Positions 7,577-46,884 of a stretch of DNA of 64,000 nucleotides are shown one piece after another. Every line of letters starts with the position of its first letter. Position 1 is the stretch's first letter. Source of the stretch: an uncultured Verrucomicrobiae bacterium (lineage in GTDB: Bacteria > Verrucomicrobiota > Verrucomicrobiia > Chthoniobacterales > JAFAMB01). The stretch is taken from assembly GCA_963762565.1 (NCBI GenBank), contig CAVXLD010000005.1, positions 352,001-416,000 on the forward strand, written 5' to 3'. Made by a program: the position numbers and the translations under genes. The notes under the pieces are model-generated. The model had not been told where the DNA came from, searched no databases, and saw only the letters and a program-made list of their open reading frames with translations.

Positions 7577-7722
7577 TCTCTCACAAAGCCACAAAGACAC
7601 AAAGAAAGGCGAAGATTGACGCTGCGTCTTGCCGAGGCCTGCTAACGCTCGTTCCCCTCGACCCCGCTCGCTAAACTTTTGGGCCGGGCTGGTCCTTCGT
7701 GTATTTGTGCCTTTGTGTGAGA
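7577..7722. mobile_element. MITE-like element with inverted CACAAAG-repeat arms
   Basis: 7577-7604 versus reverse complement of 7695-7722: 24/28 identical. Confidence 0.65.
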
Positions 7723-7777
7723 TGATATCCGGCGGCTGACGGGGAGGTACGCTCCACGATGTGTCCAATCACCATAC

Positions 7778-8617
7778 TCACCTCTCCCGTTTCACGCGTG
7801 TCACCAACTGGGTTGGGTCGACTACGCGCAGAGCGATCACCAGCGGGATCAGGGCAGTCACCATATAGATAACGGCCATGGCGTCGATCGATTGGCCGGC
7901 TCGAACGCCGGCTGCGAACACTGTGTAATATAAGGCCACAACGAGTGTCTGACTATCCGGACCCGCGGTCAAAAAGGTTAGTTCGAACATACCGATCGTG
8001 CGCACTAGAACCAGGAGACCGGCGGCAAGGATACCGGGTGCAAGTAGCGGCACAAGAACGTGCCTAAAAAGGCGTAGTGTGCCCGCGCCAAAAACCCGAG
8101 CGGCAGCTTCCAGCTTCGGATCGATCTGTTCAATAAACGGTGTCATCACCAAGATAACAAATGGCACCGCAGGGACGAGGTTGCCTAGAATGACACCGGT
8201 GATAGTGCCACCCAGATGCAAGCTGTAGAGCAAGGTCGCCAGCGGGATCCCGTAGGTCATGGGCGGAACCAGTAATGGTAAAACAAAAATCAAAAGGGTG
8301 ATTCGTTTAAATCGAAAATTTCGGCGCGCCAAAGCGTAAGCAGCAGGGACACCGAGCAGAAGTGAAATTGCTACCACCGCAAACACGACCTCGACAGTAA
8401 CCGTCAATACACTATCTAGCTGGAACTCGCTCCACGCTGTCGAATACCACCGCAAAGTGAACCCGCTCGGCAACCACGTGCCCAGCCAGGTAGTAGCAAA
8501 AGAATTAACCACCACCACGGCGATTACGGCGAGAACGTTGAGAACAAAAAACCCGATCGCAACCCAGACTAGGAGGCGGGGGAGGTGATTGGTGAGTGGT
8601 GATTGGTGATTGGTCAT
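7778..8617 (-). CDS. ABC transporter permease (PotC/CysW-like)
   Basis: EAAARVFGA EAA motif and TM helices; N-terminal MTNHQSPLTNH is encoded by heptamer repeats. Confidence 0.9.
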   Translation of the reverse strand: MTNHQSPLTNHLPRLLVWVAIGFFVLNVLAVIAVVVVNSFATTWLGTWLPSGFTLRWYSTAWSEFQLDSVLTVTVEVVFAVVAISLLLGVPAAYALARRNFRFKRITLLIFVLPLLVPPMTYGIPLATLLYSLHLGGTITGVILGNLVPAVPFVILVMTPFIEQIDPKLEAAARVFGAGTLRLFRHVLVPLLAPGILAAGLLVLVRTIGMFELTFLTAGPDSQTLVVALYYTVFAAGVRAGQSIDAMAVIYMVTALIPLVIALRVVDPTQLVTRVKRER

Positions 8618-8896
8618 AACGCCTGGGGTTTCGCCCTACGCAATTTGCTAGGCTCCTCGCGAGGCTTCTTTGGCGGATTGTGTGCGGGCGAAATAGCCGG
8701 GGAGGGATCGCGTCCTCGTCCGGCAGCCGCCGGATTGTTACCGAAGTCGAGGATGTCTGGGGATCGGCGAGGAGTTCACCTGTTGTTTGTCGTTCGCTGT
8801 TCACGTGCGCCCTCACCAATCACCGCGGAAACGCGGCATTGAGCTTTCTACCTGGCCCTTTGCATGTCCAATCACTAATCACTTATCACCTCTCAC
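8584..8896. repeat. Element with inverted GGTGATT / AATCAC(T/C) heptamer arms, containing a partial GGAG-REP
   Basis: ggtgatt-type x4 at 8584-8617; caatcac taatcac ttatcac ctctcac at 8868-8896. Confidence 0.75.
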
Positions 8897-8898
8897 GG

Positions 8899-9936: not shown

Positions 9937-11091
9937 TCATTCGGGAGGAAAAACGAGCACGCGCTCCGCCGGTATCGCCAAACGCAGCCTCTCGCCTGCG
10001 ACCACGCGTTTCTGAGTTCGTACGTGCAGTAGAAGCCCGGCAGACGTCACAACATCGACCAGATAATCGCGTCCACAGTACTCGACGATCTCCGCTTGAC
10101 CCGACAACACGTTTCCTACGTCGACTGACCCCTGGCTCATCTCGGGTGCGTCCACCTGAACGTCATCGGGTCGGATGGCAGCAACGGCCCGGCCGGTCGT
10201 GAGCGGCTCCTGGGCAACGCCTTCGAGCCGCATACCGGGCCCGGTCAGTGAAACTCGATTCTCTAGAATCCGGTCGACTTCAAGATCGAGGATGTTCCGA
10301 TAGCCCATAAACCGCGCGACTTTCAGATTCGCGGGTCTGGTATAGAGCTCTTCCGGTGCATCGATCTGCAGTGTCCGGCCCTCGTTCATCACGACTATTC
10401 GGTCGGCCAGTGACAACGCTTCATCCTGATCGTGCGTGACATAGATAGTGGTCCGCTGCAAATCGCGATGGATACGCTTAATCTCGGCGCGCATCTCCAG
10501 GCGTAATTTGGCGTCGAGATTAGATAGAGGTTCGTCCATGAGAATAAGTGGCGGCTCGATCACGATGGCGCGGGCGATGGCAACCCGTTGTTGTTGGCCG
10601 CCCGAAAGCCGGCCCGGTAACTTATCTGCGTGCGCTTGCAGTTGAACCAGCTCCAGTGCAGCATCGACTCGGCCACGGATTTCCTTTTTTGGAAATCCCC
10701 GCATCATGAGTCCAAAAGCAACATTCCGGCGCACAGTCAGATGCGGAAAGAGGGCGTAATTCTGGAAAACCATTCCGAAACCGCGCCGTTCAGGAGGCAA
10801 TTCATCAATCCGCTGCTGGTCCAGCCAAATGCTTCCGCCTGTCAACGGCAACAACCCCGCCACGCAATTCAGCGCGGTCGATTTGCCGCAGCCCGAGGGG
10901 CCGAGTAAGGCGATAAACTCGCCTGCTTGAATCGTCAGATCCATCCCGGCTAGAGCAACCGCGCTCCCGAAATGCCGGCTCACCCGCTGAAGACAGAGCT
11001 GTTTAAAGGTTTGCGGCCGACCTTCGCCAAGCCATTCTTTCCGGTTAGCGTTCGGCGTTTGGCGTTCGGCGTTCGGCGATGCAGAGGACAT
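9937..11091 (-). CDS. ABC transporter ATP-binding protein (PotA/CysA-like)
   Basis: [30 protein letters not shown] at 11091 preferred. Confidence 0.92.
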
Positions 11092-11257
11092 TAGGTTCCA
11101 AATTTCTATACGGCAGATCGCCTGCAAGGAGTGTTTTGCTCGAGCCTAGATAAATCCGCAGTCGACAGTGGCTGCCCCCGACCGCGCCAAACGCCGAACG
11201 CCGAACGCCAAACGCCAAACGCCGAACGCCAAACGCCAAACGCCAAACGCCAAACGC
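11048..11257. repeat. Element with inverted GGCGTT(C/T) / AACGCC(A/G) heptamer arms
   Basis: ~4 heptamers at 11048-11078 and ~10 at 11185-11257 in opposite orientation. Confidence 0.85.
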
Positions 11258-12576: not shown

Positions 12577-13014
12577 CGTCCTCGAAACTCTGGTAGGGCG
12601 AGGCTCCAAAACGTAATAGGCTGCTGGCATACTTAGCGCCCGCGGCTACTCCGTCTAGTAGGTTACGTAAGCATGGCCGAGCCGGGGATGGAGCGTGGCA
12701 AAGATTGAGCGTGCTCTCTTGTTGCGAATCCGGTCTTGGGTCATCGCCCTGGTGTGGCACGCTTATCGGACCAAATCATACTGTCCCTTTCGGGACGGGC
12801 CGCCTTCTTACACCATTCCAGGCACTAAACTGCCTGGCTACCATCGTAAAGTCCCTCCAGGACAGAAACCTTACACGAGCCCATCGCCAGGAGGGATCGC
12901 GTCCTCGCGATCAGCTGTTACCGAAGCCGAGCACGTGTTCTAATCATCGGCGAAAATACACGCTTCGGTTATGGCACGTCCTCGCGGCGCGCGGGGACGC
13001 GCGCCCTCCCGAAT
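12577..13014. repeat. 438-bp composite REP element, copy 1 (split GTAG-REP + GTCCC/GGGAC module + GGAG-REP doublet)
   Basis: Collinear homolog at 23673-24110. Confidence 0.9.
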
Positions 13015-13036
13015 ACGTGACCACGCGCCCATCGCT

Positions 13037-13156
13037 GGGAGGGATCGCGTCTCGTGATCGTTGTTAACGAAGCCAAGCACGTGTTCTAATCACCGGCGAA
13101 AATAGACCCTTCGGTTATGGCACATCCTCGCGGCGCGCGGGGACGCGCGCCCTCCC
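13037..13156. repeat. Extra tandem copy of the ~120-bp GGAG-REP doublet (REPIN-like)
   Basis: gggagggatcgcg...gcggcgcgcggggacgcgcgccctccc; other copies at 12890-13010, 23985-24105 and inverted at 37690-37808. Confidence 0.85.
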
Positions 13157-13230
13157 CGATCTGCACCCTGCGAACGCTGTTGGAGAGGGACATCCTCCAA
13201 CCCGAAAACCTAAAACCTAAAACCTCCAAC

Positions 13231-15033: not shown

Positions 15034-15209
15034 ACAGATTACACAGATTACTGCGGATTTCGTATTTCAGGTTCCGCGATCACTACCAAGCTGAACGCCA
15101 AATAGACAGACCAAAGGGATGTATTTCATAACGGGGTATCCGCACTGGTCTCCCGCCTCGATAGCCGCCGACTTCTGGCGTCAATCCGAAATCTGCAAAA
15201 TCTGCGGAT
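15034..15209. repeat. Element with inverted CAGATTA-type 9-mer arms
   Basis: acagattacacagatt at 15034-15060; aatctgcaaaatctgcggat at 15183-15209. Confidence 0.65.
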
Positions 15210-15671: not shown

Positions 15672-15840
15672 ATCCGCAGATTACGCAGCGAAAGTTCCGG
15701 GGTAAAATTACGCAGATTTCGTTGCGAGGTGAGTTAGCATCACGGGTTAAGGAGAACGTATTGGTACGAAAGATTTATCTTTCTCGCCGGCGGCATCAAA
15801 GCTCACAACGAAATCTGCGCAATCTGCGAAATCTGCGGAT
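15672..15840. mobile_element. MITE-like element with inverted CGCAGATTA 9-mer arms, copy A
   Basis: Arms and interior are homologous to 20191-20332. Confidence 0.75.
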
Positions 15841-16275
15841 CATTTCTCTTTGTGACCGTGGCTCCACCGAGTGACCGACGAGAGTTCTAGAACCATCTGC
15901 GCCCCAGCTAAATCAGTGTCTATCTGGTTCATCCGCCTCCGCAAGGCCTGCGGCGCGACAGGTTCTGCGGTTAGGGTCTTTGTTCCTGTTCGTTCCCAGG
16001 TTTCCCGCTCGTGATTGGTGCCCATCTGCGGTTCGGCCGTGCATGCCGCAGATAACTAGTTGGAGCTGCAAGGAACACAGCGACCGAAGTCCATTCAGGT
16101 CACAGCGCTCCAAGCAGCTCCGTTCTACGAGTTCCCGAAAACCCAAGCCCTCCTGGCTTTAGTGCCCGTGCTCGTCTTGTCTGATATCTTTTTTGTCTGC
16201 CCTGATATCCTTCTCCACCGCTTTGATCTTTTCCTTCTCCTTATCGATCACGCTTTTGCTTTTATGCTCTAGCCG

Positions 16276-16402
16276 GTGAGCAGTAAGCCGTAAGCAGTAA
16301 GCCGTAAGTGAGCAGTCACCCCAGCAGCGACTTTCGATCGAGTAGCGAAGCTGACGACTGATTTACTGCTCACTGCTCACTGCTTACTGCTCACTGCTTA
16401 CT
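16276..16402. repeat. Element with inverted CAGTAAG / CTTACTG heptamer arms
   Basis: Arrays at 16276-16316 and 16357-16402. Confidence 0.8.
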
Positions 16403-18462: not shown

Positions 18463-18708
18463 TCAAAAAAAAGAGAGCGGTTACGGTTGCATTAACCCAC
18501 GAGTCTGCAAGCAAAATAAACGAGCGAGAACGCCGGGACCGAGCGTGAACGGTAGGACTGAATAGCCAGATACCAGATCACAAATAGCAAGAGAACACCC
18601 GACAAACGCGCCCAGAATTCGCAGGCGTATTGGCCTTTGCGCCCGTCTTACTGATCACTGATTACTGTTTACTGTTTACTAGTCCCCTGGCGAGAACGGA
18701 GCTGGCGG

Positions 18709-20022: not shown

Positions 20023-20464
20023 TAACCGCGAATAGACACGAATACTACCGCGAATGCACGCGAATGGAGAACCAACCGCAGCCCCGAAATCCTCCGGGGT
20101 GAAATGAACGCAGATTTAGATTGGAACGAGAGGCCGCGTTAGAACCGTGGTGAGTCACTCGGCCGGGCCACGATCAAACAAAGAGAAATTATCCGCAGAT
20201 TACGCAGATTACGCAGATTTCGTTCGGGGGTTAGCTAGCCCGCGAGGTAAAGAAGAACGTGTCACTACGATAGATGCGTTTCAATCGCCGGTCGTATCAA
20301 GGCTCCAAAGGTAATCTGCGAAATCTGCGGATCGTTCCTGTCTTGCCGGCTTTGCTCGATCCAACGCGCGTCTCGCTCTATTGCGTTGCCCGTCCGGACG
20401 TTATCATCTGCGTCAATCTGCGTTCATCTGCGGTTGAGGTGTTTGTTCGTGTCTATTTGCGGTT
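20023..20464. mobile_element. Nested element: outer inverted CGCGAAT/CGCAGAT arms enclosing an inner CGCAGATTA element (copy B, 20191-20332)
   Basis: taaccgcgaatagacacgaa (20023-20042) matches the reverse complement of 20446-20465 at 19/20. Confidence 0.75.
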
Positions 20465-20997
20465 AAAAAGAGGACTTGGGTTGAGCCGTAGGTTTTATCT
20501 CGGACTGCGGTCCAGCCGTGGGCTTCCAGGGCTAGGTCGCCTGACGTTTTTTCGAGCACTAGCAGGCCGTCATCTGCAAGCCGGTCCTTAAGCGCACTCG
20601 ATCCGATGAGCTTGGCGGCGAGGTCAGGGTCGTTCGGGCGTTTCGAGTAAGGTGGATCCGCGAAGATGAGATCGAATTTTTGATCGGTTCGTTCCAGGAA
20701 ACGAAACACATCCGAGCGAAAGACAGCGGCTTCGAGCCGGGTTTTCTCAAGGTTCGCTGTGATCGCGGCGATCGCCTTAGGATGATCATCCACAAAAGTT
20801 GCTGACGCTGCGCCACGGCTTAAAGCCTCGATGCCAAAAGCGCCGCTCCCCGAAAAAAGGTCGAGCACTCGGGCGTCGATCACCCGTTCACCCAGAGCCG
20901 AAAAGATCGCTCCGCGCACCATCTCCATCGTCGGACGCAGGTCATTACTCGGAATCCTGAGAGGGATGCCGCGAGCGGAACCGGAGATTATTCGCAA
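20413..20997 (-). CDS. rsmD: 16S rRNA (guanine966-N2)-methyltransferase
   Basis: MRIISG, LRPT, VLDLFSGSG, EALSRGA, FADPPY, YG; C-terminal tail is repeat-derived. Confidence 0.92.
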   Translation of the reverse strand: MRIISGSARGIPLRIPSNDLRPTMEMVRGAIFSALGERVIDARVLDLFSGSGAFGIEALSRGAASATFVDDHPKAIAAITANLEKTRLEAAVFRSDVFRFLERTDQKFDLIFADPPYSKRPNDPDLAAKLIGSSALKDRLADDGLLVLEKTSGDLALEAHGWTAVRDKTYGSTQVLFLTANRHEQTPQPQMNAD

Positions 20998-33591: not shown

Positions 33592-33600
33592 GCAAACTTG

Positions 33601-33892: not shown

Positions 33893-33968
33893 CAATCATG
33901 GCTTCCACTGTAAACGTTTGCATCATTTGCTCTGCGAGTGTTACGTTTGCGCGTTTTCTCTTTCCCCC

Positions 33969-35411: not shown

Positions 35412-35966
35412 AGACCGTGTGGGCGTATGGGCGCGCCGGCGTATCGGCGAGACGCCGGCCGCTATTCGTGGTCCACTCAGTCTACTTTGTCCACTACCAG
35501 TAACGGGCGGGACGCATCCATAAGTCCCCTCCCTGCCGGATAGGTCGAGAGATCGAACTCGGCCTGGCGGGGAACCCCGAGAGCGAAAATTCGTACTTGG
35601 ATCTCTAGATCATGTTCGATGTATAACTCGCTGAGCACCAACGAGATTCACTCGATGCCAAACATTGGCATGCTCTATGTTCGCTCATGGCTTAGAGCAA
35701 TCCCGTTACCTAACTGAAACTATCATGCAGAGCGCCGCAACTCCTGCTTATCGCTGTGAGAAAAACTAACTATTACCCGCGTTCGCGATCACGGGTTTAT
35801 CTTCGCCGAGATAAAATTACCGACATCACACAAGCAGTTGTTCCATGAGTCTACTCGATCCACTCCGTAAACTTATTTCACCAGAGCCAAAAGCTTTCGA
35901 CGCTGATGCGCTTCCAAGCAAACCGCTAAACGCCGAACGCCAAACGCCGAACGCCAAACGCCAATC

Positions 35967-36851
35967 GTGAACCTTTCTCAGCAACACGACCGAACGTTTG
36001 CCCGCGCCATGGTTGGACCCGCGGTGACCCTCCTATTTCTGGTGACCATCGGTCCGTTACTGTTCTCCTTGGTGGTTTCGTTCACGAATCTGCAATTCAG
36101 TGCGCCGCAACCGATGCGCTGGGTGGGTATCGATAATTATGTAAACCTGCTCTTCAATGATTCTCGGTTCCTCAGCTCAATGGGTCGAACCCTGGTCTTT
36201 GTGCTGGCCGGTGTTGTGGTCCAGACACTGCTCGGCTATTTCATCGCTTCCTTGCTGTTGCATGTCCAGCGGTTCCGCGCGTTCTTCCTCGGACCGATCT
36301 TAATTCCTTCTGTGATTTCCTCTGTGGTGGCCGGCTGGCAAGGGAGAATGATTTTCAATGCGTCTTACGGTCCATTGAACGATCTTCTTGCGCATATCGG
36401 GATCACAGGACCTGCCTGGTTGGCGCATCCGCAGACGGCTCTTTTATCCGTATTTCTGACTGATACCTGGCAATGGACGCCGTTTCTAGCCCTGATTATT
36501 TTAGCAGCGTTACAAAGCCAACCTCAGGAGTTGTTGGAGGCAGCCCGGCTCGATGGCGCCCGCGGTTGGTCTATGTTTCGCCGGATCACGTTACCGCTGA
36601 TTTTGCCGGTAGCTGGGGTAGGTGTCTTGCTTCGCGGAGTCGATTTATTCAAAACGTTTGATTTGGTTTATATCCTGACCCAGGGGGGACCCGGCAATAG
36701 CAGCGAGACCCTCACGTTCTTAACCTATCTGCAGGGGTTCAAGTTCTTCAATCCGAGCTACGCTTCGGCCATGTCGTTCATTCAACTGATCGTCATCACG
36801 ATCGTGGCGAAAAGCTACCTCGGAGTAATGAATAGAAGGGGAGCGATCTAA
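35967..36851 (+). CDS. Sugar ABC transporter permease
   Basis: WVGIDNY, DTWQWTPF, EAARLDGA, TQGGPG. Confidence 0.9.
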   Translation: MNLSQQHDRTFARAMVGPAVTLLFLVTIGPLLFSLVVSFTNLQFSAPQPMRWVGIDNYVNLLFNDSRFLSSMGRTLVFVLAGVVVQTLLGYFIASLLLHVQRFRAFFLGPILIPSVISSVVAGWQGRMIFNASYGPLNDLLAHIGITGPAWLAHPQTALLSVFLTDTWQWTPFLALIILAALQSQPQELLEAARLDGARGWSMFRRITLPLILPVAGVGVLLRGVDLFKTFDLVYILTQGGPGNSSETLTFLTYLQGFKFFNPSYASAMSFIQLIVITIVAKSYLGVMNRRGAI

Positions 36852-37669
36852 TGTCGAAACGGTCATTGATCGACATCGCAAGGTGGATTGCCCTATTAGC
36901 AGTGCTGGTAGTTCTGCTCTTCCCCCTGTTTTGGATTATCTCCAGCAGCCTTAAGGCCAGGGGCGAATTCTTTACTCGCCCACCCGTTTGGTTGCCTGCC
37001 CATCCAGAATGGTTTAACTATCCGGATTCACTTCAACGGGGCGGAATGAAGGGGTTAACGGATAGTTTTACCATTGCTTTCTTTTCGATGGCCGTTTCGC
37101 TGCTGCTGGGTACGCCAGCCGCTTATGCCATCGCCCGTTTCCAGATAGGGAAGAAGAACCTGGCTTTTTGGATCCTGTCCATTCGCATGTTCCCGCCCAT
37201 CGCTACGATCCTGCCTTTATTTGTGCTATTCCGGTATGCCGGTCTAGTCGATACCTATGCCGGGTTAGTTCTGTGTTATACGGTATTTAATCTTCCCTTT
37301 GCGATTTGGATCCTGAAAGGATTCATCGAGGACTTACCAAAAGAAATTGAGGAAGCAGCCAAGGTAGACGGAGCCACCCGTTTCCAAATTTTTCGGAGCA
37401 TAGTGCTCCCATTGACCGCACCGGGACTGGTGGTGGTGGCATTGTTCACCTTCATCTTCGCTTGGAACGATTTCGCCTACGCGGTCATTTTCAGTGGGTC
37501 GAATGTCACGCCACTGCCAGTCGTGATAGCACAATTTGCCGGTGGCCATGAGATTCTTTGGGGACAAATTTCCGCCGCCGCCATCATGGCGATTTTACCA
37601 GCCTTAGTCCTGGCGACTTTCTTACAGAAATACCTCACCCGAGGCCTGACCATGGGAGCGGTGAAATGA
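36851..37669 (+). CDS. Sugar ABC transporter permease
   Basis: EEAAKVDGA, FIFAWND, GLTMGAVK. Confidence 0.9.
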   Translation: MSKRSLIDIARWIALLAVLVVLLFPLFWIISSSLKARGEFFTRPPVWLPAHPEWFNYPDSLQRGGMKGLTDSFTIAFFSMAVSLLLGTPAAYAIARFQIGKKNLAFWILSIRMFPPIATILPLFVLFRYAGLVDTYAGLVLCYTVFNLPFAIWILKGFIEDLPKEIEEAAKVDGATRFQIFRSIVLPLTAPGLVVVALFTFIFAWNDFAYAVIFSGSNVTPLPVVIAQFAGGHEILWGQISAAAIMAILPALVLATFLQKYLTRGLTMGAVK

Positions 37670-37689
37670 AGCAAGGAGGGCCCAACGCC

Positions 37690-37808
37690 GGGAGGGCGCG
37701 CGTCCCCGCGCGCCGCGGACCCGGTCTGTATCGTCGACCCAATCCGGCGCTTGATCGGGTCTATGCTGGGCTTCGCGAACAACGGATCGCGAGGACGCGA
37801 TAGCTCCC
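37690..37808. repeat. GGAG-REP doublet, inverted relative to the 12890/23985 copies; followed by an AAACCTA heptamer array (37833-37871)
   Basis: gggagggcgcgcgtccccgcgcgccgc...cggatcgcgaggacgcgat. Confidence 0.8.
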
Positions 37809-37906
37809 CATCACGGGTGATGACCGGACCCCAACCTAAAACCTAGAACTTAAAACTTAAAACCTAAAACCCAGAGCCGTAATGGTGATATAGATCAAAG
37901 ACACTT

Positions 37907-38335
37907 ATGCTTAAAAATCTGACCTCCCTGCACACGCCCGAGTTGTTACACACATTGGCTTCGATGGGACACGGTGATGATATCGTAGTCGTTGACGCCC
38001 ATTTTCCGGCTGTATCTATGGCGCAAAGACTTGTCCGGCTTGATGGTGTCAGTGCTCCTGCCGCTCTGGATGCGATTTTACAGCTCATCCCCCTGGATAG
38101 CTTCGTGGATGACCCAGCCTTACGGATGGAAGTGGTGGGAAAGCCGGATGAAGTTCCGGAGGTGCAGAAAGAATTCCAAGCGGTCATCGATAAGCGGGAA
38201 GGTAAGGCTTCGCCGTTAGCGAAAATCGAACGGTTCGCATTTTATGAACGGGCAAAGAAAGCTTTTGCCATCGTAGCGACCGGCGAACTGCGTACTTACG
38301 GGTGTGTGATCATTAAGAAGGGCGTTATCCTGTAG
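37907..38335 (+). CDS. RbsD/FucU family sugar pyranase/mutarotase
   Basis: MGHGD.IVVVDAHFP, ERFAFYE, TGE.R.YG. Confidence 0.9.
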   Translation: MLKNLTSLHTPELLHTLASMGHGDDIVVVDAHFPAVSMAQRLVRLDGVSAPAALDAILQLIPLDSFVDDPALRMEVVGKPDEVPEVQKEFQAVIDKREGKASPLAKIERFAFYERAKKAFAIVATGELRTYGCVIIKKGVIL

Positions 38336-38345
38336 AATTGCCGGT

Positions 38346-39281
38346 ATGCCGAAAGCGAAAGTCAGCATCCTAGGAGCATTCGTAACCGATCTCGCTTGCC
38401 GAACGGATCGTATGCCGAAGTGGGGAGAAACGATCCTGGGTAATTCATTCAAGCTGGGGCCTGGTGGAAAAGGCTCGAACCAAGGGGTAGCCGCGGCGCG
38501 TTTAGACGCGGACGTTGGTTTGATCACTAAGATCGGGAAGGATGCATTCGGCGAGATGGCGAAGCGCTTTTACGTAGAGCAGGGGATGAGTCTAGCGCAT
38601 ATCTACGAAGACCCGGAAGAAACCAGCGCCACCGCTACAATCGTTATCGACGAAAAGACGAATGAGAACTCGATCATCGTTGTGCAAGGCGCTTGTGCTC
38701 ATCTCACCATAGAAGAAGTGGAAGCCGCCGATTCTGATATTGGCAGCGCTGACATTTTCATGACCCAACTCGAGTTACCGCTCGCGCCGACGGTACGCGG
38801 TATCGAGTTGGCACATGCAGCCGGCGTACCGATCATTCTGAACCCGGCGCCCGCTTTACCCGTACCGCCGGATGTACTGGCCAAGGTCGATTATTTGACT
38901 CCGAATGAGACCGAAGCAGTGACCCTGGTTGGCAAAGAATCGCTGGATCAATTCCGAAACATCGAGCAGCTCGCCGATGAGCTTCTCGCGCTCGGAGTAC
39001 GCAATGTGGTGATTACTTTGGGCGAGAAGGGAGCTTTTGTGAAAGGGCCGGGGGTTACCCAGCACGTTCCACCGTTTTCGGTAGAAAAAGTCGTGGAAAC
39101 CACCGGCGCGGGGGATGCCTTTGCCGGCGGGTTCGCAGTGGCGTTAGCCGAGAAAAAGCTCCTGGTAGAGGCGGTGACATTCGGGTGTGCAGTCGCCGCG
39201 ATTTCTGTGACTCGACGCGGCACCGCGCCATCGATGCCCTACAGGAAGGAAGTGGATGCGTTGTTGGGAGTGAGGACTTAG
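38346..39281 (+). CDS. rbsK: Ribokinase family (ribose/deoxyribose kinase)
   Basis: GPGGKGSNQ, LNPAPA, TPNETEA, ETTGAGDAF. Confidence 0.9.
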   Translation: MPKAKVSILGAFVTDLACRTDRMPKWGETILGNSFKLGPGGKGSNQGVAAARLDADVGLITKIGKDAFGEMAKRFYVEQGMSLAHIYEDPEETSATATIVIDEKTNENSIIVVQGACAHLTIEEVEAADSDIGSADIFMTQLELPLAPTVRGIELAHAAGVPIILNPAPALPVPPDVLAKVDYLTPNETEAVTLVGKESLDQFRNIEQLADELLALGVRNVVITLGEKGAFVKGPGVTQHVPPFSVEKVVETTGAGDAFAGGFAVALAEKKLLVEAVTFGCAVAAISVTRRGTAPSMPYRKEVDALLGVRT

Positions 39282-39315
39282 CAAGCGATGAAAACGCTGC
39301 CAACAGGATGAACCT

Positions 39316-40296
39316 ATGAACTCGATCGACACAAGCTACCCCGATGCGTTGCTCAAAGACCAGGACGCCTGGGCCAGGCCGGATCTGGATTGGGTAAAAG
39401 CGATCGCCGTAAACAAAAGCGCTATCGAACGGCGGGTCGCTACGTTAGCGGGGAGGCGTACAGTAAAGAAGGAATGGCAGGCTGCTTGGCTCTTAAAAGC
39501 GATTACCTGTATCGATCTTACCACTCTGTCCGGAGACGACACCGAAGGCAAAGTGCAACGGCTGTGCGCCAAGGCCAAATCTCCCGTTCGAGCGGACCTT
39601 CTCGAGGCTTTAGGTGTGACTGACATTACGGTCGGTGCGGTCTGTGTCTATCCGACCATGGTCGGCCACGCAGTACGAGCCCTGAGCGGCACCAACATCC
39701 CGGTTGCCTCAGTTGCCACCGGTTTTCCCACCGGTTTGATGCCGATGACCCAGCGCTTGGAGGAGATCCGGTACGCAGTCGATCAAGGGGCCGCCGAGAT
39801 CGATATGGTAATCACGCGCGAGCTCGTACTAACGGGAAGATGGGAAGAGCTTTTCGATGAAGTTGCTGCCTGTAAGGACGCCTGTGGCCGGGCACATTTA
39901 AAGGTCATTTTAGCCACAGGCGAGCTTGCCACTCTGCGGAACGTGGCTCGGGCTAGCATGGTTGCCCAACTCGCCGGCGCCGATTTCATAAAGACTTCCA
40001 CCGGAAAAGAGGCAGTAAACGCGACTTTGCCGGTTACTTTAACCATGGTTCGTTGTATCCGGCATTATTATCAATCGACCGGCCGAAAAGTCGGTTTCAA
40101 ACCCGCCGGCGGTATCCGTTCCGCCAAAGACGCTCTAGCCTGGCAAATCTTAATGAAAGAAGAACTGGGCCGCGATTGGCTTGAACCAGAGCTCTTCCGT
40201 TTCGGCGCCTCCGGCCTGTTAACCGATATCGAACGCCAGCTCGAACACTTTGTGACCGGCCGGTATTCGGCCAATTACCGCCATCCGGCGGCATGA
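39316..40296 (+). CDS. deoC: Deoxyribose-phosphate aldolase (long form)
   Basis: IDLTTLSGDDT, AVCVYP, ADFIKTSTGK, KPAGGI, FRFGAS. Confidence 0.93.
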   Translation: MNSIDTSYPDALLKDQDAWARPDLDWVKAIAVNKSAIERRVATLAGRRTVKKEWQAAWLLKAITCIDLTTLSGDDTEGKVQRLCAKAKSPVRADLLEALGVTDITVGAVCVYPTMVGHAVRALSGTNIPVASVATGFPTGLMPMTQRLEEIRYAVDQGAAEIDMVITRELVLTGRWEELFDEVAACKDACGRAHLKVILATGELATLRNVARASMVAQLAGADFIKTSTGKEAVNATLPVTLTMVRCIRHYYQSTGRKVGFKPAGGIRSAKDALAWQILMKEELGRDWLEPELFRFGASGLLTDIERQLEHFVTGRYSANYRHPAA

Positions 40297-40325
40297 CTCA
40301 CATCTGAGAACGGAGCGATGGCCCA

Positions 40326-40497
40326 CAGTAAGCACGTAAGCAGTAAGCAGTAAGCGGTAAGCAGTAAGCAGTAAGCAGTAAGCAGTTTTATCATGACCTG
40401 GCTATCCAAAGCACCGACTAATTGTGGCGACGGCGCCGTAATCGAATGCCGCCTCGGCTGCTCGGCACTGCTCACTGCTTACAGCTTACTGCTTACT
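40326..40497. repeat. Element with inverted CAGTAAG / CTTACTG heptamer arms
   Basis: ~8 heptamers at 40326-40386; 4-5 inverted at 40466-40497. Confidence 0.85.
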
Positions 40498-40549
40498 TCC
40501 GCGCCACCCCACCAAACCTTTTCTAACCCAGTTAGCTTCCACGCCAACA

Positions 40550-42958
40550 ATGCCTACCGTTAAAGAGATATTCGCCACCATGGAATACGGCCCAGCGCCG
40601 GAGAGCGCCGAATACGTGAATGCATGGCTGGAAAAACACGGGCGCCGCTTTGGGCACTTTATCAATGGCCGGTTCGTGGAAGGGAGTAGCACCTTTGAGG
40701 TGATCAATCCGGCGACGAAAGCAACTATCGCTACGGTTAGCCAGGGAACCGGCGCCGAGATCGATCAAGCGGTTCAAGCTGCCAGTGCTGCCTTTGAAAA
40801 CTGGCGTGCTACTTCCGGTCATGAACGTGCGCGTTATCTGTACGCGATTGCTCGTCAGATCCAAAAACATTCCCGGCTTTTCGCTGTGCTCGAAACCATC
40901 GATAACGGCAAACCGATCCGTGAGACCCGTGACATCGACATCCCGCTGGTAGCGCGGCATTTCTACCATCACGCGGGCTGGGCCCAGCTCGCCGGCGAGG
41001 CTTTTTCGAATTACGGACCTGTGGGTGTTTGTGGCCAGATCATTCCCTGGAACTTTCCGCTACTGATGTTGTCCTGGAAAGTCGCGCCCGCATTAGCGGC
41101 CGGTAACACCGTCGTGCTGAAGCCTGCCGAGTTTACTCCGCTAAGCGCAATCCTTTTTGCCGAGATCACCCAGCAGATCGGCTTACCTCCCGGCGTATTT
41201 AATTTGGTTACTGGAGACGGACGCGCCGGAGCAGCGTTGGTAGAACACCCTGGCGTCGCTAAGATTGCATTTACCGGTTCAACTGAAGTCGGCCGGATCA
41301 TCCGGCAAAAAACTGCCGGTTCCGGGAAAAAGCTATCGCTCGAGCTCGGCGGCAAGTCCCCGTTTGTTGTTTTCGACGATGCCGATCTGGACAGCGTCGT
41401 GGAAGGTGTGGTGGACGCGATCTGGTTCAATCAAGGCCAGGTCTGTTGCGCGGGAAGCCGGTTATTGATTCAAGAGAGCATCGCAGAGGTGATGTACTCC
41501 AAACTTCGGAACCGGATGGAGAATCTGCGAGTGGGTGATCCTCTCGATAAAGCGATCGATATTGGCGCGATCGTGGCGCCCGTCCAACTCCAAAAGATCG
41601 AGTCCCTGGTCCAGCAAGGCATCAAAGAAGGCGCCAGTTGCTGGCAACCGCACTGGGCGGTCCCAACCGAGGGACTGTTTTATCCTCCCACCCTGTTTAC
41701 CAATGTTGAACCGGCCGGCACCCTGGCCCAGGTCGAGATCTTCGGACCTGTCCTGGTCGCGATGACCTTCCGTACACCAGAGGAGGCAGTCGAGCTTGCT
41801 AATAATACTCCGTATGGATTGGCCGCATCGGTCTGGACCGAAAATTTGAATCTGGCACTCGATATCGCTCCAAAAATCAAAGCCGGAGTCGTCTGGGTGA
41901 ATTGTACAAATGTGTTCGACGCTGCAGCCGGGTTCGGCGGCTACCGAGAGAGTGGGTTTGGCCGGGAAGGCGGCGTGGAGGGAATGTACGAATATCTGAA
42001 GCCGAATTGGGAGCAACACCTTCCCGAGGTAGAGGACTCCGGCTTTGAACCTCGAGCCGAACCGGGTGTTAACGCCGGCAACGCCGACAGCGCCGACAGC
42101 GCCGTCAACGTGGGTATCGATCGGACACCAAAGCTTTATATAGCGGGAAAACAGACACGGCCGGACAGCGGTTATAGTTATCCGGTGTTTGATCCAGCCG
42201 GAAAACACCGGGGAGAGGCCGGATTCGGCAACCGCAAAGATATCCGGAACGCGGTCGAAGCGGCCGTTAAAGCCACAGGCTGGGCAAAGTCACCGGCGCA
42301 TTTGCGGGCTCAGATTCTTTTTTATATCGCCGAGAACCTTCAGGTGCGGGCCCGGGAATTCACAGACCGTTTGGTTGGCGACGCCGGTTATGCGGTTGAG
42401 CTGGCTGAACGTGAAGTGAAAGCCGCTATCGAACGGACGTTCTATTACGCGGCGTGGGCCGACAAATACGACGGGCGGATACACCAGACCCCATTCCGCA
42501 ACGTGACCTTGGCCATGCCTGAGCCATGGGGAGTCATGGGAATCGTCTGTCCGGAAGCAAACCCGCTGCTGGGTTTCCTTTCCCTGGTGCTGCCGGCCAT
42601 CACCATGGGAAATAATGTCGTGGCGATCCCGTCCGCAAAATATCCGCTCGCGGCAACGGACCTTTATCAAGTCCTCGACACCAGCGACTTGCCGGGTGGA
42701 GTCATCAACATCGTCACCGGCAACCAGCTGGAGCTCGCCAAGGTTCTCGCCCAACACCTCGAGGTCGCAGCCATGTGGTTCTTCGGCTCAAAATCGGGAA
42801 GCGAGATGGTGGAACGCGAGTCGGCCGGCAATCTCAAGGCAACCTGGGTCAGCCATGGTAAAGCCCGCGACTGGTTCAACCCCGAACAAAGCCAAGGGGA
42901 AGAATTCTTGCGGCATGCGACGCAGATAAAGAACATCTGGGTGCCGTACGGAGAGTGA
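40550..42958 (+). CDS. Two-domain aldehyde dehydrogenase (ALDH16-like)
   Basis: IPWNFP, FTGSTEVG, LELGGKSP, QVCCAG (catalytic Cys), EIFGP; second partial ALDH domain ending KNIWVPYGE. Confidence 0.9.
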   Translation: MPTVKEIFATMEYGPAPESAEYVNAWLEKHGRRFGHFINGRFVEGSSTFEVINPATKATIATVSQGTGAEIDQAVQAASAAFENWRATSGHERARYLYAIARQIQKHSRLFAVLETIDNGKPIRETRDIDIPLVARHFYHHAGWAQLAGEAFSNYGPVGVCGQIIPWNFPLLMLSWKVAPALAAGNTVVLKPAEFTPLSAILFAEITQQIGLPPGVFNLVTGDGRAGAALVEHPGVAKIAFTGSTEVGRIIRQKTAGSGKKLSLELGGKSPFVVFDDADLDSVVEGVVDAIWFNQGQVCCAGSRLLIQESIAEVMYSKLRNRMENLRVGDPLDKAIDIGAIVAPVQLQKIESLVQQGIKEGASCWQPHWAVPTEGLFYPPTLFTNVEPAGTLAQVEIFGPVLVAMTFRTPEEAVELANNTPYGLAASVWTENLNLALDIAPKIKAGVVWVNCTNVFDAAAGFGGYRESGFGREGGVEGMYEYLKPNWEQHLPEVEDSGFEPRAEPGVNAGNADSADSAVNVGIDRTPKLYIAGKQTRPDSGYSYPVFDPAGKHRGEAGFGNRKDIRNAVEAAVKATGWAKSPAHLRAQILFYIAENLQVRAREFTDRLVGDAGYAVELAEREVKAAIERTFYYAAWADKYDGRIHQTPFRNVTLAMPEPWGVMGIVCPEANPLLGFLSLVLPAITMGNNVVAIPSAKYPLAATDLYQVLDTSDLPGGVINIVTGNQLELAKVLAQHLEVAAMWFFGSKSGSEMVERESAGNLKATWVSHGKARDWFNPEQSQGEEFLRHATQIKNIWVPYGE

Positions 42959-43179
42959 GCTGCGTATCGGCGTATCGGCGTGTCGGCGTGTGGGGAGCTC
43001 GAGCGCTTCGTTCTCCCGACTTCGCTCGCCGACAGAGCTGCCAAACCAGGGAGGTAAAGCTTCGTCGGGCAGGCTGTCCTCGTCGTCGCCGAGGTTCTTG
43101 TGGAGCGCGCCTCGCTTGCGAGGCCGACTCGGTGGAAACCGCGGACGGAGGAAATAGACTGGGGCGAACCGGGCCTTCG

Positions 43180-43785
43180 CTATCTAGCGCGGCGCTGACT
43201 GCGCATGCGATACATGCGCTCCGTGAAACCGCCCTCTTCTAGGAAATGTTTTCCGAGGCTAGCGAGCTGACGATCCAAGAGCGAGCAGGCGACCGCGATC
43301 AGTACGAGGGCGGCGTTCGCGGCGATTTCGCAGTACCGTTGCTGCCGGCGGCTATGAGCGAGACGGCTACGGGTCTCTCTCACCCATCGCGCCACTTCCG
43401 CTGCGCTGCCGCAGCGCGCATCGATGAGTTCTTGTCGTAGTGGCTCTGAAAAGGACCATTCCTTGAATCCTCTTTGGCGGAGAAAGTCTCGATAATCGCG
43501 CTTCAGCTCTTCGAGACTGAACCGTGCCGTATCAGTGAGCTTCAGCTCAGTCTTCTTTGAGGTGCCGCTGGAGGCACTCCCTTCAACGATATTCTGCGTG
43601 CCGCTCCTCGCGGCCTGGACCATCTGATCATGAGTGCGGCTACGTCTTTCGACGTACCGTTCGCAAAAGCGAACCGTCACATCGAAGCAGAGCTCCGCCA
43701 TCTGGAAACTTTTCAGCTTCCGGTACCCGCCATGCGGCGGGATAAGACCATCGCCGTCAGGCGTGTCGTCAGAACGTCTCTCCAT
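43180..43785 (-). CDS. Four helix bundle protein with suffix domain
   Basis: LIPPHGGYRKLKSFQ, DQMVQAARSG.QNI.EGS, KLT..AR.SLEEL..DY, LLDRQL...F..EGGFTERMY; ATG 43785. Confidence 0.88.
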   Translation of the reverse strand: MERRSDDTPDGDGLIPPHGGYRKLKSFQMAELCFDVTVRFCERYVERRSRTHDQMVQAARSGTQNIVEGSASSGTSKKTELKLTDTARFSLEELKRDYRDFLRQRGFKEWSFSEPLRQELIDARCGSAAEVARWVRETRSRLAHSRRQQRYCEIAANAALVLIAVACSLLDRQLASLGKHFLEEGGFTERMYRMRSQRRAR

Positions 43786-43849
43786 GGAGAAGAGACATAT
43801 ATCATAACATAAAATATTCAAGTTGTATATTCGCGGCCCCGCCAGAATA

Positions 43850-43958
43850 GTAGACAGAGTGGACGTAGTGGACCCAGTAGACGGAGTAGCCACGACGATG
43901 AGCAGCCATCCGCTGTCCACTAGGTCCACTCCCGTCCACTCCGTCCACTCTGTCCACT
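43850..43958. repeat. Element with inverted GTGGAC / GTCCAC 9-mer arms upstream of the four-helix gene
   Basis: Arrays at 43850-43890 and 43915-43958; solo GTCCAC arrays also at ~35471-35496, 45046-45090, 45447-45490, 46782-46816. Confidence 0.8.
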
Positions 43959-44026
43959 TCCCCCGCATGCCATCCCTTCGCCGCCCCACTCATTGACAAC
44001 CCGCCCCTCCATTCCCATTTTTCTAC

Positions 44027-45013
44027 ATGAAATCTCCCGTCAAGGTCGCCGTGACCGGCGCCGCAGGTCAGATCGGCTATTCGCTTCTCTTCCGGATTGC
44101 TTCCGGGTCAATGCTCGGACCGGATCAACCGGTCGAGCTGTATCTTATCGAAATACCACCGGTATTGCCCGCCCTGGAAGGAGTCGTGATGGAGCTCGAA
44201 GATTGTGCTTTCCCGCTACTAAAGCGGATCGTGCCGACGGCTGACTTGAATGAAGGCTTCAATGGTGTGAACTGGGCGCTCCTGGTAGGAAGCGTTCCCC
44301 GTAAGCAAGGGATGGAACGAAAAGATTTGTTGGGCATTAACGGGAAGATCTTCACCGGGCAAGGACAAGCGATCGCCAAAAATGCCGCCGCGGATATCCG
44401 CATCCTGGTCGTCGGTAACCCATGTAACACCAATTGTCTGATCGCCATGAACAACGCAAATGACATCCCCAGCGATCGTTGGTTTGCAATGACGCGCTTA
44501 GACGAAAACCGGGCCAAAGCCCAACTAGCCACCAAGGCTGGAGTACACAGTTCCCAAGTCACGAATCTCACGATCTGGGGTAACCATTCATCGACCCAGT
44601 ACCCGGATTTTTATAACGCCAAGATCGACGGAAGGCCGGCAACCGAAGTGATCAAAGACGAGGCTTGGTTCAAGGAAACGTTTATCCCTACGGTCCAACA
44701 GCGCGGGGCCGCCATTATCAAAGCCCGCGGCGCTTCTTCGGCCGCATCGGCCGCAAACGCAGCCGTTGACACGGTCCGGAGCTTGGTAACGCCGACGGCC
44801 GCAGGCGACTGGTACAGCGTGGCGATCTGTTCCGATGGAAGCTACGGCGTTGAAAAAGGCCTGATCGCTTCTTTCCCGATCCGGACCAGCGGCGCCGGCC
44901 GGGAAATTGTATCCGGCGTCCCCATCAACGATTTTAGCCGCCAAAAAATCGATCTCTCGGTAAAAGAACTCGCCGAAGAGCGTTCCCTGGTCAGCGAACT
45001 TCTCCCGAAATAA
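44027..45013 (+). CDS. mdh: Malate dehydrogenase
   Basis: [46 protein letters not shown]. Confidence 0.95.
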
Positions 45014-45490
45014 TGGAGCGGCCGCGCTCGCGGGGCCCACTGCCATTCCACTGAGTCCACTCCGTCTACTCAGTCCACTTAGGTCCACTAAACCCCAAAA
45101 CGCCGACACGCCCTCGTGGCGTATCGGCGTTTTCCCGACGTCTATCCCTGACCATCTACGTGTAACCAATGCCGGCCACACTTGGATGCTTTCCTTTGCC
45201 TGAATCCTCTTTGCGCGCAACGTCGGCTGTTCAACGCCGGGATTGAAATATTTCTTTCGAATGCGGACGATAGGCTGGGCCTATAGCAAGAGCGCTGAGA
45301 TGGCGACTGCGCGTTAGCTAGGCGGCGTTAAATCGCCTTGGTTCAGTGTTGGACAATGTGCGCCTTCGCCGAAGCGCTTGTTATGGAGCGGCCTCACTTC
45401 CGCCTTCGCCAAGCCTACGGCGCGACAAGGTGCGAGGCCAACTTATGTCCACTCCTGTCCACTGCGTCCACTCCGTCCACTCCCGTCCGC

Positions 45491-46720
45491 TCACCGATAC
45501 AACCGCGGCGGCGTATGTTGCCAGGGGTCCCCACGTACACCTTCCGCGTGCCCTAAATCAAAGAGAGCCAACATATATTTTTGGTCGACTAAACCGACGC
45601 TTTTGACTTCGAAGCTATTAGGAATGTAGGCCAGGTTAAAAGTGTATCCCTCATCCTTGGCGAAGACGTACGAGTTGAGGATGGTGTCGTAGAAAGAGCT
45701 CTTCACTAAAGTGTTAAAGGCCCGAGCTGCGATATTGAATGTTTTGGGCTTGGTGACGGCAAAATCCGGGTCAAGGTTATTATTGATGATGACGTAAATT
45801 TGGCCGCCATTATGGCCACTACCTTGGCCGCTGTCGCCACTACCTTGGCCGCTGTCGCCACTACCTTGGCCGCTGTCGCCACTACCTTGGCCGCCGTTGC
45901 CACCAGCCTCGCCGCTGTTATGGCCGTCAACTTGGCTGGTAGCGGCCAACAATCGTACCGGCACAGCAAACAGCGGGTAAGCGGTCCCTCCGTCCACATG
46001 CATCTCTTTAAAATGGTGTCCGTTTGCCTCCGCATCGATATAAATGGGATCGAATGCGCCCGCTACGCTGGCTGAAGCCACGAGCACTTTGCGGAACAAT
46101 TCCAAGGCTTGAGGATGACCGCTGGCCGCCAGAGCGCCCATGTTCCAGAGCACAGGCCGCTGAGCGTCCAGATTAGTCGTGATAACGAAAAGACGTCTCC
46201 CGTTGCGATACGCGGTAGCAATGTCGTCGAGCACCTTTTGATCGATCTGACTCGCTACAAGCCGTTGTAGCGGAGCTGTGCTGTACAATCCTTGCCCGAA
46301 CAGCCCCAGGAAAGGATTCCCTGAAAAGACACTATGGAACGTCATCTGCGTATAGAGTGTCTTAAGCCGTTCGTCGTATTGCCGTCCGAGAAAGGCAAAC
46401 GGAGACATGAGTGCGCCCGTTGAAACCCCGGTCACAATATCGAAACTCGGGCGATGTCCACTCTCGCTCCAGCCGCACAGTAAGCCGGCTCCGAAGGCGC
46501 CGTGTTCACCGCCACCGGAAAGGGCAAGCATCGAAACCGGTTGCCCAGTGAGCAGGGGACCTAAGTTTGCTAGCTGGGTTCGAAGCACAGAAAGCGGCGC
46601 ATCTCCCCAGGCGCGTACTCCGGGGATCCCCATCGGTAACGCGTTTTCTAGTTCCGCTTCGGTGTATGGCATCCGCTGTTCTGCAGTTGCCGGGATAGCC
46701 GTGCTTACGAGGAGAAGCAC
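45491..46720 (-). CDS. Patatin-like phospholipase with a Gly/Ser repeat insertion
   Basis: SGGGEHGAFGAG, GVSTG, HVDGG motifs. Confidence 0.88.
   Translation of the reverse strand: MLLLVSTAIPATAEQRMPYTEAELENALPMGIPGVRAWGDAPLSVLRTQLANLGPLLTGQPVSMLALSGGGEHGAFGAGLLCGWSESGHRPSFDIVTGVSTGALMSPFAFLGRQYDERLKTLYTQMTFHSVFSGNPFLGLFGQGLYSTAPLQRLVASQIDQKVLDDIATAYRNGRRLFVITTNLDAQRPVLWNMGALAASGHPQALELFRKVLVASASVAGAFDPIYIDAEANGHHFKEMHVDGGTAYPLFAVPVRLLAATSQVDGHNSGEAGGNGGQGSGDSGQGSGDSGQGSGDSGQGSGHNGGQIYVIINNNLDPDFAVTKPKTFNIAARAFNTLVKSSFYDTILNSYVFAKDEGYTFNLAYIPNSFEVKSVGLVDQKYMLALFDLGHAEGVRGDPWQHTPPRLYR
45815..45919. repeat. 21-nt coding tandem repeat (GQGSGDS)
   Basis: gccactaccttggccgctgtc x3 perfect plus 2 degenerate units. 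Confidence 0.9.
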
Positions 46721-46884
46721 GGAGAGGCCGTAACAAATCGAGCATGACCGAAGTTTTGCATCCGTTCGAAAGTTGTTTCTCGTCTACTAAGTCCAGTCCG
46801 TCCACTAAGTCCACTTCCTGCAGGCGCGAATTTTAGCTTGCAACAAACGCTTCTCCCTCTACTTTTCTTTTCCTCTGATTCTCA

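Follow-up and report, generated by a model that had tools for sequence, protein, structure and literature searches.

Gene-less hairpin elements with short-word arms as candidate partners of two kinds of mini-gene cassette in a Verrucomicrobiae genome

Elements and gene cassettes in the window

The window, the whole 64-kb stretch of DNA analysed here, contains two small genes for four-helix-bundle proteins, which score 51.4 and 26.5 bits against the TIGR02436 HMM (cut-off 24). The first (30149-30625, plus strand, 158 aa; TIGR02436, PF05635) belongs to a cassette at 30067-30598 that is bounded by inverted tandem arrays of the word TCGTCC, hereafter arms, and folds at z -10.6. This cassette lies between addB-like and addA genes and not in an rRNA gene, and its gene reads through the right arm, with the stop codon overlapping the addA start; the encoded protein has a weak match to PDB 2gsc (E 0.03). 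The second gene (43180-43785, minus strand), missing from an earlier, sequence-only reading of this DNA, carries a suffix domain (TIGR04258). A GTGGAC/GTCCAC pair at 43849-43958 forms the upstream end of its cassette, whose downstream arm is present in the relatives G002, G003 and G005 and lost here. We take the four-helix protein to be akin to Avd, and we know of no active site in it.

The sequence-only reading listed nine inverted pairs and a set of solo arms, every one of which is in place, and called them gene-less; this holds for most pairs but not for the one it put at 43850/43958, the cassette end just described. Gene-less pairs lie at 7577-7722 (CACAAAG-type arms of the GxxExxY class, core of about 90 nt, fold z -3.1), 8584-8896 (GGTGATT arms of the four-helix class, with a REP-like remnant within the core and a left arm that overlaps the predicted start of the permease gene) and 11048-11257 (GGCGTTT/AACGCC arms, whose cognate gene is absent from the loci sampled). 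Two pairs with CGCAGATTA arms follow, a decayed one at 15034-15209 (fold z -1.3) and one at 15672-15840 with an 88-nt core and a small palindrome inserted into its left arm. CAGTAAG arms of the four-helix class bound the pair at 16276-16402, and CAGTAAG arms also bound the pair at 40326-40497, between deoC and an aldehyde dehydrogenase gene. The pair at 20191-20332 does exist, but it does not stand alone: it is the innermost, CGCAGATTA-armed member of three nested pairs (20025-20465), surrounded by a CGCGAAT shell and an CGCAGATGAA shell, and it too holds the 88-nt core. Under DNA parameters, eight of the nine pairs fold better than their shuffled versions, at z -3.1 to -7.0. The smallest loop measures about 25 nt (43889-43915) and the largest about 250 nt (8614-8864), matching the core range of 25-250 nt given earlier.

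Solo arms are scattered between these elements. An AAAACCT arm (13205-13225) and an GGCGTATC arm (42962-42989) each sit immediately 3' of a stop codon, whereas the AACGCC arm in a group with GGCGTATC and GTCCAC (35420-35964) ends beside a start codon. A TTACTG(A) arm (18648-18680) represents the CAGTAATC word, whose cognate four-helix genes were found in relatives, and a CACTCCA arm (27176-27215) the GGAGTG word, whose cognate gene lies elsewhere in the genome. GTGAGAG, CAGTAAG and GGTGATT arms are stacked with a right CGCAGATGAA arm at 21002-21225; a TCGTCC arm (23648-23680) is followed by REP-type elements; an AAACCTA arm (37833-37871) is kept in G002 and G003; GTCCAC and GGCGTATC arms lie at 45047-45492, and a GTCCAC arm precedes tRNA-Lys (46782-46815). 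By hand count, 19 of the 22 spacers of at least 60 nt between 7577 and 46816 contain an arm, in line with the earlier statement that elements occupy most of them.

Repeat words and their protein families

Genome-wide, arms consist of words of 6-10 bases repeated in direct tandem, unlike palindromic REP sequences, and 1750 of 1969 arrays are intergenic. Their polarity is fixed (669:8 over 23 words). Neighbours of the same word within 300 nt are inverted in 275 cases and direct in 23, against a permuted expectation of 18 ± 4.6 inverted pairs, an excess of about 15-fold and well above chance. Inverted doublets are thus over-represented, hairpin-forming and extragenic, as in REPIN-type elements, and the array data contradict the random orientation and lack of common flanks or cores that mark phase-variable microsatellites. 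More than 20 words coexist in the genome, and words are conserved across genera while cores decay. Arms sit shortly 3' of stop codons, and between 36 and 51% of spacers of at least 60 nt carry one: 43% of co-directional, 51% of convergent and 36% of divergent spacers, which does not agree with the preference for operon spacers proposed earlier. Host genes seemingly enclosed by arms were set aside as probably lying between two neighbouring elements.

The arms of gene-less pairs also flank genes of two unrelated types; the earlier reading had likened the pairs to the 30067-30598 cassette. Inverted arms surround 46 of 55 four-helix loci and 53 of 59 loci of GxxExxY genes (TIGR04256/PF13366, PD-(D/E)XK family; 12 genomic matches above cut-off, all outside the window), which upholds the suggested association with small genes. 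The parent cassettes encode PF05635 and PF13366 proteins and no recognised transposase, and the arms flank TIGR02436/TIGR04256 genes, not Y1/HUH transposase genes. To our knowledge, neither PF05635 nor GxxExxY proteins have an assigned function. Words of 9-10 bases (CACAAAG, CGCAGATTA) belong to GxxExxY genes and not to the four-helix gene. The nearest protein of another genome has a matching word in 36 of 45 (four-helix) and 36 of 47 (GxxExxY) comparisons, where shuffling gives 4.9 and 6.0 with a maximum of 15; the four-helix tree was built by a quick method. Within one genome, a word is shared by just 7 of 56 and 9 of 97 protein pairs. The words are not interchangeable, each being tied to one protein clade; the idea of one system with interchangeable repeat types is not supported, there being two unrelated protein families.

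Arm number follows the cognate gene. TCGTCC arms have a median of 46 in the 14 genomes with the gene and of 7 in the 27 without, a comparison that includes kin and is not independent, and all five genomes with more than 150 such arms have the gene; inside genus g4 the link is weak (p 0.17). CGCAGATTA arms occur in 9 of 10 genomes with the gene and in 14 of 31 without, and G003 and G005 hold 77 and 65 matches with no cognate gene found in assemblies that are 78-81% complete.

We compared arm likeness on the inside, on the outside and in unit variants. The two arms of one element are no more alike than arms across the family (p 0.14-0.82); local fold-back copying was rejected as a general source on this basis. 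Each arm is as close to its family word as to its partner arm; together with the conservation of words over decaying cores, this suggests that the word is read by something outside the element. Arms do not in general cluster around their own gene (2 of 14 cassettes stand out), and local hopping away from a parent gene is likewise not general.

Copies, derivatives and turnover

Five internal-deletion derivatives retain pieces of a cassette gene (C5:122416, C14:123033, C13:1370, C10:281569 and C10:371471). Two derivatives of one GxxExxY cassette differ in their breakpoints, which indicates independent decay. The earlier proposal that the gene-less elements derive from gene cassettes thus stands for these five loci, a small minority of the cores.

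Other gene-less cores recur as units. The cores of 15672-15840 and 20191-20332 are homologous, as first read (62/90 nt; score 80, shuffled 16 ± 7.5), and belong to a family of 13 genomic matches whose orientation relative to the flanks we judge to be 5:7. Core families of 13, 7, 6, 7, 8 and 3 matches have one arm word each, and the biggest core clusters consist of REP-type inserts that sit within differing arms. At C7:544610 and C12:406187, two unrelated sites, a 198-nt element is 97.5% identical and its 128-nt core identical; homology ends at the arms, the copied stretch can begin within an arm, and no target-site duplication was seen by eye at this one recent pair. In G051, three gene copies (96-99% identical) lie at unrelated places, surrounded by arm-bounded modules of either orientation, and one 325-nt gene-deleted block is identical at two sites.

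Spread as units, as the sequence-only reading had it, is supported by the 13-hit core and the identical 128-nt core, but 539 of 685 cores are without a counterpart in the rest of the set, so spread is demonstrated for a minority. In that minority gene-less units were copied as units; most copying is old, since of the 140 cores that have a full-length paralogue just 4 are at least 95% identical to it. Multi-copy cores had no match in the interiors of the sampled gene cassettes (best E 0.19), and the 88-nt core likewise found no parent with a gene there; another copy of that family used as query gave no match in five congeners, a search without positive control and hence uninformative.

At orthologous junctions the elements turn over faster than the surrounding genes. 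Arms are missing at the 8584-8896 junction in G001 and G009 (G005 has related arms around another core) and at 11048-11257 in G001 and G017, and the pairs at 15672-15840 and 16276-16402 are missing in G002-G005. G002 has a different nested element at 15034-15209, and the shells of 20025-20465 are kept around other cores in G002, G004 and G005. Cassette 30067-30598 is kept in G003 and G004, with a REP-type element instead in G002 and G005. The deoC junction shows five arm types across 18 loci, all occupied, and no empty deoC site among 14 metagenome loci whose genes are 77-84% identical; nor was an empty target site seen at the compared orthologous junctions, deoC included. Strain polymorphism, earlier suggested as a check, was found in part in a noisy comparison of four DNA contig sets over 27500-47400: a contig of run X7 has 13 letters in place of 45013-45099, a solo-arm loss, and X5 has one REP-type insert replaced, but no clean excision of a pair was seen.

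Proposed copying through the arms and its alternatives

We hold with moderate confidence that these elements are gene-less partners of four-helix and GxxExxY cassettes, arising partly by internal deletion and partly by gene-less copying, with the cognate protein probably reading the word and driving or licensing copying in trans. The best reading likens them to REPIN/RAYT elements: they would be partners of mini-gene cassettes that have persisted for long, and a putative enzyme would copy them by way of their arms. It builds on the arm-gene and word-clade links, deletion derivatives, gene-less copying, orthologous-site turnover and flipped cores, all of which the sequences show. The matching protein would bind its own word, and the arrays would serve as multi-site landing pads spaced at 9-10 bases for the GxxExxY protein with its PD-(D/E)XK fold and at 6-9 bases for an Avd-like pentamer. 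A nick or a single-stranded hairpin at an arm may begin copy-in, which would start and stop inside or at arms, and the four-helix protein would require a partner enzyme. Copying bounded in this way would land new cores in or beside old arms, giving nesting, replacement and inversion without target duplication. Solo arms would be remnants, and selection would filter positions, favouring those close 3' of stop codons and leaving fewer in divergent promoter gaps.

An RNA route is unlikely. Transcript arms would pair, RNase III would excise the element, an Avd-like protein would bind the RNA and a reverse transcriptase would copy it back, template switching producing deletions and mosaics. In its favour, the Coxiella intervening sequence combines this protein family with tandem heptamers and a stem that RNase III cuts (PMC4990558, in the portion used here), the genome encodes a full-length group II intron-type reverse transcriptase, and the arms lie close 3' of stop codons. 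Against this, G-U-compatible mismatches on the transcribed strand show no excess (328 vs 309 in 367 elements), gaps between convergent and between divergent genes are occupied too, and the GxxExxY nuclease-fold class would go unexplained. We also consider it unlikely that the small genes are passengers, with the hairpins spread through host recombination, through gene conversion among the abundant arms or through the genome's RAYT transposases in trans, and the word-clade link due to mere co-inheritance. Ten Y1 transposase matches above the cut-off, several with REP ends of their own, the REP-type core clusters, copies that can begin inside an arm and arm-rich genomes in which no cognate gene was found would all suit this view. 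No tandem-word array lies within 500 nt of any of 12 Y1 loci, and this, the conservation of words over decaying cores, the resemblance of each arm to its family word as much as to its partner and the way arm counts follow the gene speak against it.

That every gene-less pair is merely a former full cassette minus its gene, immobile once formed, is improbable: fixed-length gene-free cores at up to 13 places, the 128-nt core shared by unrelated sites and the duplicated G051 deletion contradict it for the multi-copy families. Independent deletions with gene pieces, a majority of unique cores and many solo arms speak for it, and for many singletons it may still hold. That the host keeps the hairpins, however they arose, as regulators of mRNA stability, processing or termination has a very small chance of being the main account but can coexist with the best explanation; the fully occupied deoC junction, with its five words, and arms hugging stop codons invite the idea, whereas other junctions are empty in relatives, strand bias is absent and spread is left unexplained. 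Local slippage of microsatellites that pair by chance has next to none. Unit numbers do differ between relatives, but the inverted excess, fixed polarity, common cores and gene link refute slippage as an origin; it only resizes arms.

In this genome the one-word-per-clade rule joins PF05635 and GxxExxY proteins to unexplained 7-base repeats, and it leads to a direct question of binding and mobility with non-cognate words as built-in negative controls. Such elements can occur in 36-51% of the larger spacers in a free-living soil bacterium. Tentatively, they could form a hitherto undescribed kind of selfish DNA, served by two unrelated tiny proteins, an Avd-like four-helix pentamer and a nuclease of PD-(D/E)XK fold, that would each read a subfamily-specific tandem word of 6-10 bases and spread hundreds of gene-less hairpins from arm to arm without transposase, integrase or target duplication; this class might be the source of bacterial paired heptamer arrays and of ORF-bearing rRNA intervening sequences, with a code of more than 20 protein-word pairs. 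The literature searched does not connect either gene family with inverted tandem arms except in rRNA.

MITEs and foldback elements with sub-terminal tandem repeats are internally deleted copies of gene-bearing elements with inverted ends, mobilised in trans. Our elements resemble them in their internal-deletion derivatives (at five loci, not in most cores) and in gene-less copies at unrelated sites; they differ in the absence of a DDE transposase and in having ends inside or at arrays, and no target duplication was seen by eye at the one recent pair. Long intergenic heptamer arrays are known from Xanthomonas, Nostoc and Beggiatoaceae, with no cause given in the parts of PMC4692102 and PMC4679880 used here. 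The GGGAATC repeats of Xanthomonas form 70-75 inverted pairs (Rehm 2015, PMC4692102), so paired heptamers alone are already published, and the TAACTGA repeats of Beggiatoaceae form arrays (MacGregor 2015, PMC4679880); both lie near stop or start codons, as here, but in those parts they are single-word, interpreted as G-quadruplex or regulatory sites, with no gene partner or derivatives, and the term 'four helix' is absent from both main texts. The Coxiella 23S rRNA intervening sequence, as described in the excerpt of PMC4990558, encloses an S23p ORF (PF05635) between terminal inverted repeats, and tandem heptamers precede the ORF. Cassette 30067-30598 likewise holds a PF05635 ORF inside terminal inverted repeats, whereas our elements lie outside rRNA in ordinary spacers, are mostly gene-less, have a second gene family and lack the strand signal. 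REPIN/RAYT systems, in the portion of Bertels and Rainey (2011, PMC3116915) drawn on here, comprise hundreds of gene-less inverted doublets that form hairpins, every flavour being tied to a single low-copy gene. The elements described here differ in that their arms are tandem arrays and not palindromic REPs, their partner is a four-helix-bundle or PD-(D/E)XK-fold protein and not an HUH tyrosine transposase, and their words exceed 20, true RAYT/REP elements being a separate layer of this genome; they share with REPIN/RAYT singlets that are remnants and elements inserted in or beside each other.

Inverted arms in the window and the genome

Every pair of inverted tandem-word arrays (arms) and every unpaired solo arm that a sequence-only reading had listed was found in the window, and eight of nine listed pairs fold as hairpins well beyond shuffled sequences, the exception being the decayed pair 15034-15209. 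By our count, arms occupy 19 of the 22 spacers of at least 60 nt in 7577-46816. Arm sequence is also protein-coding: 8584-8617 forms a predicted permease start and 30565-30625 is translated as the acidic tail of a four-helix protein.

The window corresponds to C5:352001-416000. Soil metagenome runs contain its genome (6.1 Mb, 54% GC), in which a scan found 1969 tandem arrays with units of 5-11 bases, 1059 of them 7-mers and 1750 intergenic by our own gene calls. Same-unit neighbours at most 300 nt apart were inverted in 275 cases and direct in 23 (control after unit permutation, 18 ± 4.6), and within 1.2 kb, 1097 arrays are matched with an inverted partner and 252 with a direct one. Over 23 words, with the left strand of each chosen by us from the pairs themselves, the left arm lies on the same strand in 669 pairs and on the opposite strand in 8. 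The proposed preference for spacers within operons was not borne out, as 43% of co-directional spacers are occupied versus 51% of convergent and 36% of divergent ones. Median distances are 9-16 nt for arms facing a stop codon and 54-66 nt for those facing a start (start positions approximate).

A second, REP/REPIN-type repeat layer occupies 12874-13156, 23970-24110, 37690-37810 and 33598-33895 and includes a 146-nt tandem pair; genome-wide, such elements often lie in the loops of tandem-word arms. At 1419-1650, a 44-nt REP-like unit forms 5.4 tandem copies, and it also adjoins a 349-aa Y1 transposase (G000:C1:531664). The CGCAG-type arms carry a ~25-nt palindrome (CCCCG..CGGGG; 20082-20099, 21223-21240, 15690-15706); in 43 of 52 genomic matches it sits precisely between CAG and AT, as a tiny element targeting the arms. 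A patatin-like gene (45491-46720, minus strand), with a weak CBASS phospholipase match far below cut-off, contains five copies of a 21-nt coding repeat (45815-45918).

Small genes between arms

In the TCGTCC-armed cassette 30067-30598, gene 30149-30625 encodes a four-helix-bundle protein (TIGR02436, PF05635). Another four-helix-bundle gene, at 43180-43785 (minus strand), carries a suffix domain; the 43850/43958 pair is the upstream end of its cassette, whose matching downstream arm is kept in relatives. The genome holds 8 TIGR02436 and 12 GxxExxY hits over cut-off. From this genome and its relatives, 119 loci were collected, orthologues and two duplicates included; five were left out, two for lack of a seed hit and three for short flanks. 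In the remaining 114, inverted arms flank 46 of the 55 four-helix genes and 53 of the 59 GxxExxY genes. GxxExxY arms are built from words of 9-10 bases containing C(A/G)C(A/G), and those of four-helix genes from words of 6-9 bases. By eye, a promoter-like AT-rich stretch separates the GxxExxY left arm from the start codon at loci L037-L066.

When each protein is compared with its nearest counterpart in another genome, the two share a word in 36 of 45 and 36 of 47 cases, some of these pairs being orthologues at one site, against 4.9 and 6.0 (maximum 15) after shuffling; within a single genome, words mostly differ between proteins. In a quick tree, one protein clade covers the CAGTAAG, CAGTAATC, GGTGATT/GTGAGAG and GGCGA words. 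The sampled loci contained no cognate gene for AACGCC, AAACCTA, AATGACA or GGGACCTAT. In genus g4, oppositely facing arms bracket the TCGTCC gene, as if it had been set between two gene-less hairpins.

TCGTCC arms number a median of 46 in genomes with the cognate gene versus 7 without (p 0.002, uncorrected; p 0.17 inside g4). Of 10 genomes with the matching gene, 9 contain CGCAGATTA arms, as do 14 of 31 genomes without it, and in two draft genomes rich in these arms no cognate gene was found.

Copying, decay and turnover

Most cores (539 of 685) are singletons, and the biggest clusters are REP-type inserts within various arms. Six families, with 13, 7, 6, 7, 8 and 3 hits, combine a fixed gene-free core with one word each. 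The largest takes in the 15672 and 20191 elements, whose cores are homologous, as had been claimed (62 of 90 nt match); its median identity is 69%, its usual setting is within a CGCAGATGAA shell, and by our reading its core runs either way relative to the flanks (5:7). Full-length paralogues exist for 140 of 595 cores, 4 with at least 95% identity. One 198-nt element, at C7:544610 and C12:406187, is 97.5% identical with an identical 128-nt core; homology extends no further than the arms, of which the left ones differ in their units, and we saw no target duplication there. In the related genome G051 (89% complete, 7% contamination), the four-helix subfamily of the window is present in three copies, 96-99% identical. 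They occupy unrelated sites and are embedded in mosaics whose arm-bounded modules face both ways, and a 325-nt gene-deleted block there is identical at two sites. The mosaics at G051 loci L143, L151 and L156 are recent and 1.4-1.9 kb long; they combine gene, deleted-gene and spacer modules, with TCGTCC arms bounding each one.

Derivatives retaining gene pieces are scarce, at five loci plus one truncated copy among 685 cores. The five keep both arms: C5:122416 and C14:123033 retain the last 27-29 codons with different breakpoints, C13:1370 about ten from the start and nineteen from the end, C10:281569 the first fifteen or so of a four-helix gene, and C10:371471 a gene piece. At G000:C3:44257-44848, a repeat of roughly 270 nt, present in dozens of copies across the genome, splits a four-helix-bundle gene; relatives of this repeat end in CTAG, similar to the ends of a 356-aa IS-type gene (C1:708631).

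Across orthologous junctions compared at about 80% identity, the 8584 element is missing from G001 and G009, the 11048 element from G001 and G017, and the 15672 and 16276 elements from G002-G005; G003 and G004 retain the 30067 cassette, and in G002 and G005 another element has taken its place. The deoC junction (40326..40497) is occupied in 18 of 18 loci by five different words. These loci come from 4 genomes and from 14 contigs of metagenomes, some of them nearly identical; a further contig that ended in the gene was excluded. At 16060-16272 lies what is left of a gene that G003 and G004 have in longer form, with inserted elements now on its flanks. Only the tail of a membrane-protein gene is left at 23635-24176, where repeats occupy the gap; G002 and G004 have that gene between lipid kinase and glnE.

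Proposed route of spread and known systems

The arms act like a word shared across a family and not like mirror images generated by local copying, in keeping with protein recognition. A cognate protein would bind its array, and on a nicked or single-stranded hairpin copying would begin and finish at the arms, so that new units would land in old arms. PF13366 assigns GxxExxY a nuclease fold. The four-helix protein, a pentamer of unknown function (PMC4990558), would require a partner. No tandem-word array lies within 500 nt of any of the 12 Y1 transposase loci. Spread through RNA is possible: the Coxiella IVS combines the same protein with heptamers and RNase III cutting, and the genome has a reverse transcriptase (a full-length, 453-aa group II intron-type enzyme at G000:C11:224500-225861), but the mismatches do not favour the transcribed strand (328:309).

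Inverted heptamer pairs have been described in Xanthomonas (PMC4692102) and heptamers near starts in Beggiatoaceae (PMC4679880), with no gene partner mentioned in the available parts of either main text. In the literature covered, which leaves out most subscription journals, we found no description of an arm-gene link outside rRNA. The system is real, genome-wide and outside known families. Further comparison systems are MITEs, foldback elements and Avd. The pattern of few long-lived genes, many gene-less doublets and one flavour per gene matches REPIN/RAYT as described in PMC3116915, and by this analogy the elements would work like REPIN/RAYT but with different proteins.
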